The notes below the pieces were generated by a model. That model ran no database searches, had not been told where the DNA came from, and worked only from the letters and a program-made list of their open reading frames with translations. 24,000 nt of DNA from an uncultured Haloferula sp. (GTDB lineage Bacteria > Verrucomicrobiota > Verrucomicrobiia > Verrucomicrobiales > Akkermansiaceae): NCBI GenBank assembly GCA_964628795.1, contig CAZVMS010000216.1:12164-36163 (forward strand), written 5' to 3'. Below, one piece after another: positions 4,044 through 11,642 of this stretch. Each line of letters opens with the position of its first letter. Position 1 is the first letter of the stretch. The position numbers were made by a program, and so were the translations under genes.

Positions 4044-4292
4044 TATTTTCTCGCTGCCGGCGAGGTTGGCGAGGGTGCGGGCGACTTTGAGGATGCGGTC
4101 GTGGGCGCGGGCGGGAATGCGTTGACGGTGGTTTTCGAACTGACCGGGGGAGCCGCGGCATTCCCTCTTGGTGTCTCCGTAGTAGCCGCAGTTGCAGGGG
4201 TTCATGGCGGCGACGAGCATGAAGCGGGCGGGGAAGGTGAATGAGCCCGCTGCCCGGCTTTTCGAAACGGCACCGTCTTCAGACGGCTGTTT
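4044..4292 (-). pseudogene. comM: comM/yifB (Mg-chelatase-like AAA+ competence protein) internal/3' fragment, decayed
   Basis: The minus-strand translation reads ..[82 protein letters not shown]. This matches the conserved ComM blocks ([43 protein letters not shown]). About 85 aa between the RI-SGPLLDRIDL region and the RA..RILKV block are missing. There is no N-terminal AAA+ part and no proper C-terminus. It corresponds to track ORF 3891-4220. Confidence 0.7.
4051..4191. repeat. Direct repeat copy A (141 bp, comM-derived)
   Basis: Hand alignment to 11502-11642 gives 129/141 identities with no gaps and the same orientation. Confidence 0.85.
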
Positions 4293-4342
4293 CTTTTCAC
4301 CACTTCGAATTGGCGGAAGTTATCATCAGAAGGCGTGTCATA

Positions 4343-5293
4343 TCATGCTGGGAAACGATTCGAAATTTCCTCGCCGATGAATCTTCGGGCATGGGTAAGG
4401 GGCATGGCCGAGACTTCCACCTCCAGCAGGCAGTAGATGGCGTCGTTGAATGATGGCTCCCGATGAAATGCGTGGAAAGTGGCACCAAGGGAAAGGTAGT
4501 GGCGGAGCAGCGGAGGGATGGGCTTGGGCTTTCCGGTGCGATCGGTGATGTGGGGACGAAGCTCATCGATGGTGGTTGATTTCGCGGCGACGTCCGGGTG
4601 GTTGGAGGGAAACGGCAGGCGGGCAGTGGCGAGCGGGCCGCCGGGATGAAGGCGGTGACGGTGGAGCCAGGAGGTCATCAGGCGGCGGGAATCATTGCTG
4701 AAATCCGGTGACAGGGTGACCGACCCGAAGAGCCTTTGGATGCCGTGTCGCCGGACCATCGCGCCGAGGCCCTGCCAGAGCAGCGGCAGGGCGATGCGAT
4801 CGTTCTGATAGGCGGCGGCCACAAAAGACCGCGTGAGTTCCACGGCGCGGGAGTCGCGGGAAAAAAAGCCGGGGTCGAAGTGGAACATGTGGCTGAGATA
4901 TAGGTTGGGCAGTCCATGGTCCGGCAGCACTTCGGCTGTGAAGCCGAGCCGGTAGGCGCCCGCGATCCGCTTGGCGTTCCGGTCCCAGAGGACGAGTTGG
5001 CGATACCATGCGTCCTCGCGGGTCTGATCGCGGCCGAGGCCGGTGCCCTGACCGGACAAGCGGAAGGTGATTTCTCGCTGGCGGGTCAGTTCGTGAAACA
5101 GCGCGGGCGCTTCGTCGCGATGGAAATCCAGCACCTCGAAATCGCCCCGTGAAAGAACCCGCGTGGCTGGGTCGGCGGCCAATTTTCCGGCATCGCGATG
5201 GATGGCTGCCGGATCGAGGGCAGGGTCAATGGGGAGTGGACGGGTCGATTTTGTGGCAGAGCTCATAAAGGATGCGGGTGGCAGCGGGATCAT
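4343..5293 (-). CDS. OlsB-like GNAT N-acyltransferase (Acetyltransf_5 / hemolysin-like; lyso-aminolipid synthase type)
   Basis: Blocks typical of the OlsB/GlsB family are present: RQREITFRL..G, LWDRNAKRIAGAYRL, VELTRSFVAAAYQ, LLWQGLG, IPPLLRHYLSLGA and the C-terminal AIYCLLEVEV. The start is uncertain (ATG 5293 or ATG 5266). Either start overlaps the upstream acyltransferase gene by 41-68 nt. Confidence 0.75.
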   Translation of the reverse strand: MIPLPPASFMSSATKSTRPLPIDPALDPAAIHRDAGKLAADPATRVLSRGDFEVLDFHRDEAPALFHELTRQREITFRLSGQGTGLGRDQTREDAWYRQLVLWDRNAKRIAGAYRLGFTAEVLPDHGLPNLYLSHMFHFDPGFFSRDSRAVELTRSFVAAAYQNDRIALPLLWQGLGAMVRRHGIQRLFGSVTLSPDFSNDSRRLMTSWLHRHRLHPGGPLATARLPFPSNHPDVAAKSTTIDELRPHITDRTGKPKPIPPLLRHYLSLGATFHAFHREPSFNDAIYCLLEVEVSAMPLTHARRFIGEEISNRFPA

Positions 5294-6044
5294 TGTCGGG
5301 AAGGTCGTCGGGGGCCGGGAACAGCTTCACCAACAGCGGGCAGGGACGGCGGCGCAGGGCTTCGCGGGGCAACAACAGGCTGCGGAGCATGGGCCAGCGA
5401 AGCGGCGTTAATCGCAACAGCAGCCCGGGGCACAGCGGGATGTGAACGAGCATGATCCGCGCACCGGCCCGCCGCGCTATCCGGATCAGGTGCGGCGACC
5501 ACGGTTCGTCGAGTGCGCGGCCGCGGCGGTCTCGTTTCCCGGCGACCCGGCCGGAGGGAAACGCGCCGACCACGCCGCCCTGTTTCAGGTGTGCGAAGAC
5601 CTGGCGCAGGCCGCGGAGGTTGACCGCGGCGTCGGCGTCCCATCCAAAAGGATCCAGTGGGATGCTGTGGCGGGAAAATTCGGGTTTGGAGGCGATCCAT
5701 GGGTTGGTGAGAATTTTCCAGTCTTGGGGAGCAAGGGATTCTAACAGTCGCATCAGGATCAGCGCTTCGATCATCCCGGTCGGGTGGTTCGCAAGCACGA
5801 GCGTGCCGGTTTTCCCGGTGGACGGCGTTGGGGGCGGTACGAGTCTCCAGGTGACGCCAAGTTCCCGCAAGACGGCTTCGGAGAAGGCATCGGCGTTGCC
5901 GTCACGGGGCGCGGCGCGGCGGTGGACGCGGTTGATGGCGCGGATCCCGGCGAGGGTCTCGATGATCGGCAGGAACGGGCGAAGCCATGCGGACCGCAGC
6001 CACATCGAGATGTCGAGAAATGGAGGATCATGCGGCTTCTTCAT
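5226..6044 (-). CDS. PlsC-like (lysophospholipid/lyso-aminolipid) O-acyltransferase
   Basis: It has the acyltransferase block I H-x4-[DE] (LANHPTGMIEA) and a block III-like motif (GAFPSGRV). Its ATG overlaps the stop of the upstream NRDE gene (ATGA at 6041-6044). Adjacency to an OlsB-like gene is the OlsBA/GlsBA arrangement. Confidence 0.8.
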   Translation of the reverse strand: MKKPHDPPFLDISMWLRSAWLRPFLPIIETLAGIRAINRVHRRAAPRDGNADAFSEAVLRELGVTWRLVPPPTPSTGKTGTLVLANHPTGMIEALILMRLLESLAPQDWKILTNPWIASKPEFSRHSIPLDPFGWDADAAVNLRGLRQVFAHLKQGGVVGAFPSGRVAGKRDRRGRALDEPWSPHLIRIARRAGARIMLVHIPLCPGLLLRLTPLRWPMLRSLLLPREALRRRPCPLLVKLFPAPDDLPDNDPAATRILYELCHKIDPSTPH

Positions 6045-10791: not shown

Positions 10792-10801
10792 TGGGTGAGC
10801 C

Positions 10802-11092
10802 TCAGAGGATCGAGGAAGCGAGCTTGTCCTTGCCCTTGCAGCCGTCCTTGCCGGAGCACTTCTCCTTGTCGCCTTCTTTCTTTTTGCCATCGCATCCGTC
10901 CTTGCCGGAGCACTTGTCTTTCTCGGCGGCCAGGACGCTGGTGATGGATTCCTTCTTTTTGCCATCGCAGCCGTCCTTGCCAGAGCATTTTTCCTTGTCC
11001 GCATTGACATAGCCAATGGCGGCGGTGGCGCTGCCTGCGGCGAAGAGTCCGGCGAGTGCGGCGGTGGCGAGGGTTTTGGTGGTTGGATTCAT
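10802..11092 (-). CDS. Secreted Cys-repeat RiPP precursor peptide (bufferin/oxazolin-like; 96 aa)
   Basis: The preferred start is ATG 11092 (MNPTTKTLATAALAGLFAAGSATA|AIGY..., a Sec signal with an A-x-A site). The core contains three copies of (D/E)K(E/D)KCSGKDGC(D/K)GK, giving 6 Cys. It lies directly upstream of DUF692/DUF2063/DoxX on the same strand. Confidence 0.8.
   Translation of the reverse strand: MNPTTKTLATAALAGLFAAGSATAAIGYVNADKEKCSGKDGCDGKKKESITSVLAAEKDKCSGKDGCDGKKKEGDKEKCSGKDGCKGKDKLASSIL
10829..10999 (-). repeat. Three 42-nt coding repeats inside the precursor gene
   Basis: The units are at 10829-10870, 10883-10924 and 10958-10999. The two pairwise hand counts made (unit 1 vs unit 2, unit 1 vs unit 3) each give 36/42 identities. 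Each unit encodes one xKxKCSGKDGCxGK module. Confidence 0.85.
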
Positions 11093-11430
11093 GATGATTT
11101 CTTGTGGTTGTCTGTTTGTGGTTTGCCGCCTTCCGATGCCCGTGTGGCATCTCCGGCGCACTGGTGAGTCGTCCGGCGTTCGCGAGGCTTAACACGGATG
11201 ATGAAGTTTTTTCCTATTCCTCGGGTTGGCCCCCAAACCGGTAGGCATCACGAGAAATCATCCAGCCAAGACGAGTTGAGTCGATGTGGCCAAACCATGA
11301 TCCACCCGCCTGGCTCTCTTTGGTAGGGAGCGGATGTTGATTTTCCACGATGGGTTTCATGCCGCCCAAGCTTCGCAACAGAAAGTTGATGAGCGTCCTA
11401 CTCGGATGTGTTAGGCGGCTGAACCGGCGG

Positions 11431-11642
11431 TCATGAAAACAGACTCTGATTCAACGAGCGGTATTGGAGCGCCTCAAGAATGTGGTTTGGGGCGAATGGA
11501 TTCGCTACCGGCGAGGTCGGCGAGGGTAAGGGCGACTTTAAGGATGCGGTCGTGGGCGCGGGCGGGAATGCGTTGGCGGTGGTTTTCGGTCTGGCCGGGG
11601 GAGCAGCGGCATTCTCTCTTGGTGTCGCCGTAGTAGCCGCAG
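11431..11642 (-). pseudogene. comM: comM/yifB 3'-terminal fragment with authentic C-terminus
   Basis: The minus-strand translation reads (stop)[74 protein letters not shown]. It has the same internal deletion junction as the 4044-4292 fragment. Unlike that fragment, it keeps the canonical ComM end (EA.QYR.L). An in-frame stop lies immediately upstream, and there is no 5' part of the gene. Confidence 0.7.
11502..11642. repeat. Direct repeat copy B (141 bp, comM-derived)
   Basis: This is the partner of 4051-4191, with 129/141 identities and the same orientation. Confidence 0.85.

Follow-up and report, generated by a model that had tools for sequence, protein, structure and literature searches.

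Direct repeats of a deleted comM relic around bufferin and aminolipid genes in an uncultured Haloferula: possible scars of a genus-wide integration hotspot

A 7.3-kb block of genes in an uncultured Haloferula sp. (assembly G000, contig C216) is bracketed by two degenerate copies of the 3' part of comM, a gene of natural transformation. The arrangement raises the question of whether the block is, or once was, a mobile island inserted at comM, as suggested in an earlier note on this DNA, and whether it can still move. We address this question in the 24,000-nt stretch containing the block, referred to below as the window, and by comparison with the comM genes of related genomes.

The strongest repeat in the whole window by far is a direct pair of two 141-nt copies, A and B, spaced 7451 nt apart; the runner-up covers 99 nt at 76% identity. 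The copies differ at 12 positions (129/141 identical, 91%), and their longest identical run is 35 nt. Six of the 12 differences are synonymous, against approximately three predicted by neutral decay, and the excess is not significant. The two copies are more similar to each other than to any comM, to which they show 73-86% identity. A search of the entire assembly with the 141-nt unit recovers A and B, two halves of the unit in the parent comM gene, one short 3' relic on contig C74 and two marginal matches of 40 nt. With so few copies, a dispersed repeat of the REP or MITE kind is ruled out. A longer match on C74 (aa 346-496) was also rejected, the real homology being limited to aa ~458-509.

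The minus-strand frame of copy A matches the Pfam families Mg_chelatase (PF01078, 7.6e-17) and Mg_chelatase_C (PF13335, 4.6e-07), and both copies can be aligned to the 510-aa ComM of the same genome (Table 1). Alignment to the intact gene reveals that nucleotides 1134-1399 are missing from both A and B and are replaced by 2 nt, so that 88 codons are lost in frame; the microhomology TCTCCG bounds the lost segment in the intact gene. Copy B runs to the true comM stop codon, and copy A carries a second, private deletion of 32 nt, behind which part of the true 3' end is kept. Neither copy is a complete open reading frame, as the start codon, the N-terminal 319 residues and the 88 codons are absent from both. 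A and B are comM pseudogene fragments, and the shared in-frame deletion shows that they derive from one already-deleted copy. The deletion junction has 0 matches in an exact scan of the genome and metagenome contig collections, and genus-wide DNA searches return no match across it. The identity count of the earlier note, its view of the repeats as minus-strand C-terminal parts of ComM/YifB descended from a single deleted fragment, and the authentic C-terminus of copy B are all borne out. Copy A does extend further in the 5' direction, as described there; its supposedly degenerate end is corrected to the partial 3' end noted above.

Table 1. Features of the comM relics, the bracketed block and its flanks (positions in the window)
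Feature	Position	Strand	Evidence and remarks
Repeat unit, copy A	4051..4191	-	141 nt, repeat search
Repeat unit, copy B	11502..11642	-	141 nt, repeat search
Copy A, comM 3' pseudogene relic	4026..4289 (approximate)	-	comM nt ~961-1132, 1400-1466, ~1499-1520
Copy A, protein extent	4026..4289	-	aa ~320-378, 467-489, then tail; 73-86% identity to G000 comM
Copy A, equivalent of CC crossover core (comM nt 1057-1058)	4192..4193	-	junction alignment; AA here
Copy A, deletion junction (comM nt 1132 joined to 1400)	4115..4118	-	alignment
Copy B, comM 3' pseudogene relic	11431..11645	-	comM nt 1056-1132 and 1400-1533
Copy B, protein extent	11431..11645	-	aa ~353-378, 467-510, plus stop
Copy B, 5' boundary	11644..11645	-	<=2 nt from CC crossover used in G005, G013, G045; relics of G041 and G047 start there too
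Copy B, deletion junction	11566..11569	-	alignment
Bufferin-type precursor	10802..11092	-	signal peptide and three Cys-x-G-K-D-G-Cys repeats, 6 Cys
MNIO-family bufferin maturase BufB	9860..10732	-	Pfam MbnB_TglH_ChrH, 2.7e-104
DUF2063/HvfC-like RiPP partner	9079..9876	-	domain match; beside MNIO gene in all relatives' loci
HvfX-like protein	8567..9121	-	below family cut-off; with MNIO gene in G020, G008, G016, G013
ECF-type sigma-70 factor in block	7947..8513	-	NCBIfam sigma70-ECF, 78.9 bits vs cut-off 42.9
Two ORFs without family match	6771..7409, 7464..7853	-	no homologue near relatives' MNIO loci
TANGO2-like gene	6041..6847	-	family match; no homologue near relatives' MNIO loci
GlsA/OlsA-like O-acyltransferase (aminolipid)	5226..6044	-	family match
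GlsB/OlsB-like N-acyltransferase (aminolipid)	4343..5293	-	family match
DUF1501 gene, left flank	2682..3989	+	convergent with copy A
ECF sigma factor gene, right flank	11768..12325	+	divergent from copy B; FecR-like and NAGLU genes come next

The earlier note described comM as a recurrent target of integrative elements, and this is true of the genus examined here. In three genomes (G005, G045 and G013) the gene is split into halves covering aa 1-356/362 and 349/350-509 by islands of 65-209 kb with imperfect inverted-repeat ends of ~35 nt; the halves lie 209 kb apart in G005 and 65 kb apart in G045. The core of this hotspot is a CC dinucleotide at comM nt 1057-1058, inside the sequence encoding NPCPCGYYG, with the left junction ...CCCTGT-CC-GCAGGGATT... 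and the right junction ...AATCCGCAT-CC-CTGYGGCTAC. The end motif yields 22 matches, versus 2 for a reversed-pattern control, and tandem arrays contain abutted R-CC-L junctions that resemble attP. The cargo of the islands is non-phage and comprises metal-resistance, glycosyltransferase and defence-like genes; the islands splitting comM carry no surrogate comM 3' end. Relics beginning at aa 348-352 are seen in G041, G047, G019, G009 and G024, as well as in copy B of G000. A further candidate, on contig C258 of G011, was rejected as the far side of a contig break in that genome's own comM.

A large serine recombinase is the most probable driver of the hotspot islands, the candidates being proteins of 620-640 aa with Resolvase and Recombinase/Zn-ribbon domains. 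Homologues are confined to the genomes in which comM is interrupted (G005, G013, G045 and G009) and are found in 0/27 genomes with full-length comM. The proteins of G005 and G045 are 48% identical; their genes do not adjoin the island ends but are 14-27 kb away. An IS30-like DDE mechanism was considered in view of the inverted-repeat ends, the apparent 2-bp target duplication and the abutting of ends with a 2-nt spacer, which in G016 is CA and not CC. It was rejected because the other abutted junctions retain CC and no rve-type transposase gene (PF00665) is present in G005 or G016; none is found on C216 of G000 either.

Copy B begins at this genus-wide crossover, and ~12 nt of its upstream flank weakly resemble the R-end arm. 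With up to one mismatch allowed, G000 contains 0 matches to the end motif, and the best 35-nt match to decayed element ends on C216 reaches 22/35, against a shuffled null of 23-24. Since the matches on C216 do not rise above this null and the resemblance of the flank is weak, copy B is tied to the element family by its position alone. Copy A begins at comM nt ~961, 96 nt upstream of the crossover, and is continuous through the site, where CC has changed to AA. The two junctions are thus not both at the crossover, and A and B do not form an attL/attR pair, contrary to the att-like repeats of the earlier note; element-derived arms (P, P') and a cognate recombinase are likewise absent from G000. 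Examined as a tyrosine-integrase island, the locus is indeed bracketed by direct repeats of target-gene 3' sequence, but has no repeat within intact comM and no integrase beside it.

The absence of a recombinase, anticipated earlier, is confirmed more widely: no homologue of the G005/G045 type is detected in G000 by tblastn or HMM, and C216 encodes no serine (PF00239) or tyrosine (PF00589) recombinase. Many tyrosine and several serine recombinases are encoded on other contigs of G000, and a block of accessory genes bracketed by direct repeats of a known target gene could in principle be excised and reintegrated by one of them. Such continuing mobility is nevertheless extremely improbable, as 12 of the 141 repeat positions differ, copy A has no CC core, element ends and a homologue of the hotspot recombinase are lacking, the assembly contains no alternative junction contig, and the deletion junction, unique in all collections searched, gives no sign of spread. 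Site-specific movement of the block would no longer be possible today, because there are no ends, no recombinase homologue and no integrase on C216, the core of A is mutated and the repeats have drifted to 91% identity. What stands of the mobile-island idea is the comM hotspot, the accessory nature of the genes and the missing recombinase; the att pair, the compositional contrast and the element ends do not.

Intact comM is located on the same contig and strand as the relics (C216:52268-53797, minus strand), 28.5 kb beyond copy B. The window itself lacks an intact comM, integrase or transposase, as the earlier note stated, the intact gene lying just outside. No integrase is encoded in the intervening 28.5 kb, where the genes are for glycosidases, sulfatases and surface proteins. 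On one strand there is thus a series of intact comM, 28.5 kb, copy B, 7.3 kb and copy A, and neither repeat adjoins the intact target gene. Intact comM with a downstream attR-type relic is also found in G041 (relic at 2 kb), G046 (relics at 1.1 and 37 kb) and G047, the relics of G046 and G041 being 85-93% identical to the comM of their own genome. Simple serine-recombinase integration does not explain this arrangement.

The series could instead have arisen by tandem accretion, with successive islands integrating at comM and each bringing its own surrogate 3' end in the manner of islands at tRNA and tmRNA genes, such that intact comM would bear the newest 3' end, B the previous and A the oldest, and the common deletion would result from gene conversion. 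The order and orientation of comM, B and A fit this sequence of events, as does the like layout in G046 and G041. We consider it quite unlikely, however: an extra gene conversion is needed for the identical deletion junction, copy A begins upstream of the crossover, ordinary genes without an integrase fill the interval between comM and B, and the known comM-splitting islands have no surrogate 3' end. A replaced 3' end in the intact comM of G000 is also rejected, as its 5' and 3' identities to the nearest relatives are concordant.

The bracketed block is a composite of a bufferin RiPP operon, an ECF sigma factor and aminolipid genes. The maturase scores 342.5 bits against NCBIfam MNIO_BufB (cut-off 310). 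The precursor ORF, as listed, opens with GTG at 11161, and its likely start is Met at 11092; the gene contains internal 54-nt repeats, and its homologues adjoin the MNIO gene in G020 and G008, where the ECF sigma factor of the block also accompanies it. The aminolipid acyltransferase pair (4343..6044) represents matches to both halves of OlsF. The best homologues of the aminolipid genes in the genus and a 400-genome phylum sample are 34-43% identical, and no donor was found in the phylum sample, where the best match is 43% identical. In no relative does the RiPP module occur in linkage with comM relics. The genes of the block are accessory, being absent from or only distantly matched in the closest relatives.

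The closest genomes, with comM 88-94% identical at the amino acid level, show no synteny on either side of the locus. As DNA queries, 20 kb of the window and the 18.6-kb stretch leading to comM match only comM itself in the four closest genomes, and the proteins encoded around comM in ten relatives include no common neighbours. The sigma-FecR(-NAGLU) cassettes of G021 and G024 are 46-59% identical to that of the right flank and are preceded by unrelated DNA; a metagenome scan likewise gave no match. The same region holds a stray NAGLU gene fragment at 20170-20269. GC content amounts to 62.5% in the block and 63.5% and 61.6% in the flanks and does not shift at A or B. The contrast in composition proposed as a check on the island is thus not seen; inside and outside are indistinguishable, and the whole contig is GC-rich (62.2% vs a genome mean of 58.3%). 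Indistinguishable composition together with the lack of an empty-site allele is formally one of the outcomes that the earlier note named as refuting the island, though here solely for want of close relatives.

This uniform composition agrees with a local segmental duplication, in which an old comM relic beside the DUF1501 gene was copied by a rearrangement unconnected with any mobility of the block, such as a tandem duplication and subsequent deletion, and the block was never a discrete insert. The assembly of the block from unrelated modules and the lack of both recombinase and element ends at the locus point the same way, and the NAGLU fragment indicates that local scrambling does happen. 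On the other hand, a tandem event should have doubled the block, and only a relic of 141-210 nt is repeated. The boundary of B would have to reflect a separate, earlier or later recombinase event in B or a coincidence, and a random deletion endpoint in a gene of ~1.5 kb would be unlikely to fall within 2 nt of the crossover. Segmental duplication is therefore possible and, in our judgement, rather unlikely.

We lean, with modest confidence, towards A and B being old scars of the genus-wide comM hotspot around a now-immobile block placed by Campbell-type recombination. One microhomology-mediated deletion would have removed the 88 codons from a comM 3' pseudogene, and duplication would have followed. 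Hotspot islands cross over at CC in comM, and copy B would be an attR-type scar beginning there; copy A would derive from the same relic and read through the site. A circle bearing the relic and accessory genes may then have recombined with the resident relic, landing the 7.3-kb block between the two copies. Given that both copies are oriented like comM, with the one that extends further 5' lying downstream and the one truncated at the crossover lying upstream, a single reciprocal recombination of this kind is the most economical solution; it is from the boundaries alone that we infer it, including the route by which the relic was duplicated, and neither a donor nor a circle nor an empty site was found. 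A more speculative proposal, with little chance of being correct, holds that the deleted comM fragment serves as a portable pseudo-attB, or landing pad, carried in accessory DNA, whose retained recombinase target sequence lets serine-recombinase islands or homologous circles insert alongside comM and not within it. If true, it would spare natural transformation and explain the combination of intact comM with truncated downstream relics on the same strand in G000, G041, G046 and G047.

Islands at tRNA and tmRNA genes, formed by tyrosine integrases and tandem accretion, are flanked by the duplicated 3' end of the target gene. The locus resembles these in the direct repeats of a target 3' part around accessory DNA and in the serial relics downstream of the intact gene; it differs in having no integrase beside the target, no repeat within the intact gene, an identical internal deletion in both repeats and no compositional contrast.

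The sr1WO prophages of Wolbachia encode a large serine recombinase and have their attB in a magnesium chelatase gene, portions of which lie on both sides of the prophage and, after rearrangement, remain on each prophage fragment (PMC9203015). The target here is likewise of the Mg-chelatase/ComM-YifB type, a likeness by gene type that does not imply orthology, and the inserts of G005, G013 and G045 carry large serine recombinases and are flanked by comM halves. Unlike sr1WO, the islands of the genus are non-phage, measure 65-209 kb and belong to a different phylum; G000 has neither element nor recombinase, and A and B are copies of one deleted relic rather than gene halves. In Acinetobacter baumannii, AbaR-type resistance islands are Tn7-like transposons inserted in comM (PMC11441513, PMC10293859, PMC11014353). 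There, too, comM is a recurrent and specific target, and a gene of natural transformation is interrupted. In contrast to the Tn7-type genes and short target duplication of AbaR, G005 and G016 have no rve-type transposase and G000 holds relics only, the ends in the genus are inverted repeats of ~35 nt flanking a constant CC, and the attP-like abutted junctions point to a serine recombinase. The comparison suggests that comM is a recurrent target of unrelated machineries in different phyla.

In the Haloferula genome, the bracketed bufferin and aminolipid genes are accessory and would now be fixed, with rare homologous deletion as the one route to their loss; it is possible that rare RecA-dependent recombination across the 141-nt repeat would remove both. 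For the genus, the analysis defines a hotspot by its target core, element ends, attP-like junctions and candidate large serine recombinase, at which islands of up to 209 kb, in tandem arrays, inactivate the natural-transformation gene comM. The predicted combination of attB, attP and recombinase would constitute a new natural set that is open to direct test.

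A repeat search of the window (C216:12164-36163 of the source genome) recovered a 141-nt direct repeat at 4051-4191 and 11502-11642 with 91% identity. The two units differ at 12 positions, and the longest stretch without a difference spans 35 nt; the second-best repeat is far weaker (99 nt at 76%). The two units belong to two relics of the 3' part of comM, copy A and copy B, which translate on the minus strand as C-terminal ComM/YifB, confirming the earlier note; copy A matches the Pfam families Mg_chelatase and Mg_chelatase_C. The sole intact comM of the genome lies 28.5 kb past copy B on the same strand. 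Aligned to this gene, both copies lack nt 1134-1399, an in-frame loss of 88 codons, and carry an identical 2-nt filler. Because deletion and filler are shared, the claim that both copies derive from one already-deleted ancestor was right. The sequence TCTCCG is common to both deletion ends in the intact gene, so a single microhomology-mediated deletion explains the loss. The copies are 91% identical to each other and only 73-86% identical to the genome's own comM, their distance to comM of the nearest relatives is just as large, and a 32-nt deletion is private to copy A; they are old relics. Synonymous changes make up six of the 12 differences, against about three expected under neutrality, an excess that is not significant.

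Features of the window (coordinates without a contig), of contig C216 and of related genomes
Feature	Location	Strand	Description
Copy A	~4026-4289	minus	comM nt ~961-1132, 1400-1466, ~1499-1520 (alignment to intact comM)
Copy B	11431-11645	minus	comM nt 1056-1132, 1400-1533 (alignment to intact comM)
Intact comM	C216:52268-53797	minus	510 aa, all three ComM domains
Third comM 3' relic	C74:10795-10950 (L010)		comM nt 1372-1526; between two large + strand ORFs
N-acyltransferase	4343-5293	minus	matches C-terminal half of OlsF
O-acyltransferase	5226-6044	minus	matches N-terminal half of OlsF
Bufferin-type RiPP operon and ECF sigma	7947-11092	minus	complete-looking
GGTCAG-N14/15-CGGTA	11736-11760, 16288-16312, 20304-20328	+	exactly three in window
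NAGLU gene internal fragment	20170-20269	+	100 nt, 75% identical to 15335-15434
C216 terminal frame	C216:54164-54676 (L009:18065-18577)		open frame just upstream of comM
G005 insert in comM	G005:C12:444649-653225 (L021, L022, L053, L054)		209 kb, three-unit tandem array
G016 abutted junction	G016:C40:240154-240223 (L052:8155-8224)		right end next to left end, spacer CA
G046 short comM 3' relic	G046:C173:24619-24753 (L026:4623-4754)		starts at aa 466-467
G002 short comM 3' relic	G002:C150:20062-20190		starts at aa 466-467

The 141-nt unit is not a dispersed repeat. A search of the whole source genome recovered copies A and B, the parent gene and a third relic, on contig C74, besides two 40-nt matches of marginal quality, a copy number that refutes the generic repeat considered in the earlier note. 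The C74 relic (aa ~458-509, 86% identical to the intact gene) is without the deletion of copies A and B, and the junction of that deletion is absent from the other genomes of the genus, 185,579 species representatives and JGI metagenome contigs. The short relics of two other genomes, G046 and G002, start at most 2 nt from the right edge of the deletion, a possible sign that comM has another breakpoint used repeatedly, near aa 466-467.

The general claim that comM is a recurrent target of integrative elements holds in this genus. Among 35 genomes searched for ComM, 27 have the full-length gene. In three, comM is broken into two parts, aa 1-356/362 and aa 349/350-509, which lie 209 kb apart on one contig in G005, 65 kb apart in G045 and on two contigs in G013. 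Fragments beginning at aa 348-352 occur in G041, G047, G019, G009, G024 and, as copy B, in the source genome. The break always falls at one CC dinucleotide (the crossover, comM nt 1057-1058) within the codons for NPCPCGYYG; the left junction reads ...CCCTGT-CC-GCAGGGATT... and the right ...AATCCGCAT-CC-CTGYGGCTAC. The inserted DNA terminates in imperfect inverted repeats of ~35 nt, and the end motif is matched 22 times across eight genomes of the genus, compared with 2 matches to a reversed-pattern control. Right and left ends abut, with the dinucleotide alone between them, in G005 (inside the insert), G013, G045 and G016, an attP-like arrangement. Since such junctions occur inside the G005 insert, at 551.3 kb and 609.5 kb, the insert consists of three units in a tandem array; each has at least one large serine recombinase gene, one of these with an internal stop. 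The comM half-sites share the CAGGGATT / TGCGG motif with the element arms. In serine-integrase att sites, four half-sites of related sequence surround a central dinucleotide that is fixed, and the element arms and comM half-sites around CC show the same layout. The cargo near the island ends (glycosyltransferases, metal resistance, AAA_13, HD-CE/MORC-like and WYL proteins) is typical island content. In G016, the spacer of the abutted junction is CA instead of CC, comM is intact and the recombinase has no homologue; this junction may be a dead attP-like site or belong to an element with a different target.

Large serine recombinases encoded within the inserts are the candidate enzymes of the hotspot. 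Two of them, of 620-640 aa with Resolvase and Recombinase/Zn-ribbon domains, are 48% identical between G005 and G045. At E <= 1e-30, homologues are found only in G005 (two, both within the insert), G013, G045 and G009, and in 0 of the 27 genomes with full-length comM. These four are precisely the genomes whose comM is interrupted or, for the 61%-complete G009, represented by fragments only. As the genomes are related, this is an association rather than a statistical test. Against the candidate stand the 14-27 kb that separate the recombinase genes from the island ends, the CA at the G016 junction and a different serine recombinase in the first unit of the G005 array. An IS30-like DDE mechanism is ruled out, with no rve-type gene in G005 or G016.

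The comM homology of copy B starts at nt 1056, no more than 2 nt from the crossover, so this copy is built like an attR scar; in the flank upstream of it, ~12 nt at most weakly resemble the right arm. Copy B occupies the divergent promoter region that separates the bufferin precursor gene from the sigma factor gene at 11768. Copy A begins 96 nt upstream of the crossover and continues through the site, with AA replacing CC. With copy A reading through the site on an AA core, the two copies do not represent opposite ends of a single site-specific insertion, and the proposal that the repeats are its att-like ends fails. The source genome contains no match to the end motif and no homologue of the hotspot recombinase; C216 carries no tyrosine recombinase, serine recombinase or rve gene, in agreement with the suggested loss of the recombinase. 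The 28.5 kb between copy B and comM encode sigma/FecR, NAGLU, HtrA-like proteases, GH35, sulfatases and large PATR/lectin-domain proteins.

The 7.3-kb block between the copies, with all genes on the minus strand, is a composite of modules. The bufferin operon comprises a 6-Cys precursor, the MNIO maturase BufB (342 bits, cut-off 310), a DUF2063/HvfC-like gene and an HvfX-like gene. In its precursor, a signal peptide is combined with three near-identical Cys-S-G-K-D-G-Cys repeats, and the ECF sigma factor lies immediately downstream. The other block genes are two unknown ORFs, a TANGO2-like gene and a GlsA/OlsA-like and GlsB/OlsB-like aminolipid acyltransferase pair. The two acyltransferase ORFs overlap by 68 nt; most genomes of a phylum sample have a single fused ORF of ~600-650 aa as the homologous frame, and the pair may be a split or frameshifted gene like that of OlsF, a bifunctional ornithine-lipid synthase. 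In relatives, MNIO and DUF2063 alone always occur together; G020 and G008 add the precursor, HvfX-like gene and sigma factor beside them, and G020 has these genes in another order with two precursor genes. The relatives' MNIO loci never include other block genes or comM relics. Only 12 of 34 genus members, none of them among the closest relatives, have an N-acyltransferase homologue (34-39% identity); in the 400-genome phylum sample, the top match reaches 43%. In the closest genomes (comM 88-94% identical at the amino acid level), comM is the sole match to the window, and a metagenome scan for an empty-site allele gave no match. The GC content of the block is 62.5%, that of its flanks 63.5% and 61.6%, with no step at A or B; the compositional contrast proposed as a sign of an island is not there. 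C216 as a whole, at 62.2%, is the most GC-rich of 95 contigs >20 kb (genome average 58.3%). Because of its composition, content and distribution in relatives, the block is accessory DNA but not recognisable as a mobile unit.

The most likely history would begin with an island that inserted at the hotspot in comM, leaving behind a 3' relic, which would then have lost 88 codons. A circle with a copy of the deleted relic (nt ~961 to end) and accessory genes would have recombined reciprocally with a resident relic truncated at the crossover. Such an event predicts that upstream copy B retains the crossover boundary and reaches the true stop codon, that downstream copy A gains a longer 5' part, and that both copies keep the comM orientation with the block in between, all of which match the observations. 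The excision between repeats put forward earlier would here run in reverse, as integration of a circle. A rival is a local duplication unrelated to the block. Another is tandem accretion with surrogate 3' ends and gene conversion; the intact comM of the source genome gives no sign of a replaced 3' end, and the islands splitting comM carry no surrogate one. An intact comM together with downstream same-strand relics truncated at the crossover is found in the source genome, G041, G046 and G047, and neither circle integration nor its rivals account for this pattern. The reading as a mobilised island is partly supported: the repeats are real integration-related scars around accessory DNA, but they do not form an att pair, no island can be demonstrated, and nothing here is mobile today.

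The region contains further signals. Each copy of the motif GGTCAG-N14/15-CGGTA, with 0 expected in 100 shuffles, precedes a + strand gene by 30-150 nt (those for the ECF sigma factor at 11768, the HtrA-like protease at 16362 and the 1155-aa PATR protein at 20470). As a candidate ECF-sigma-dependent promoter, the motif would delimit a small autoregulated regulon. The NAGLU fragment, downstream of two trypsin-like genes, reads ...HRYGTDRPEVRDAWK before a stop and is another stray gene relic. The open frame at the C216 terminus has no Pfam match; its five or more copies in G011 (76-87% DNA identity) suggest an IS-like element that broke the assembly.

ComM is the branch-migration helicase in natural transformation (PMC6158740), and the Tn7-like AbaR islands interrupt comM of Acinetobacter baumannii and lower natural transformation (PMC11441513, PMC10293859). 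In Wolbachia, the magnesium chelatase gene is the integration site of sr1WO prophages, which use a large serine recombinase; portions of the gene lie on both sides and, after rearrangement, are joined to prophage fragments (PMC9203015). The feature of the source genome is a decayed case of this known scar type, and the by-product of greater interest is the genus-wide hotspot, for which att sites are defined.
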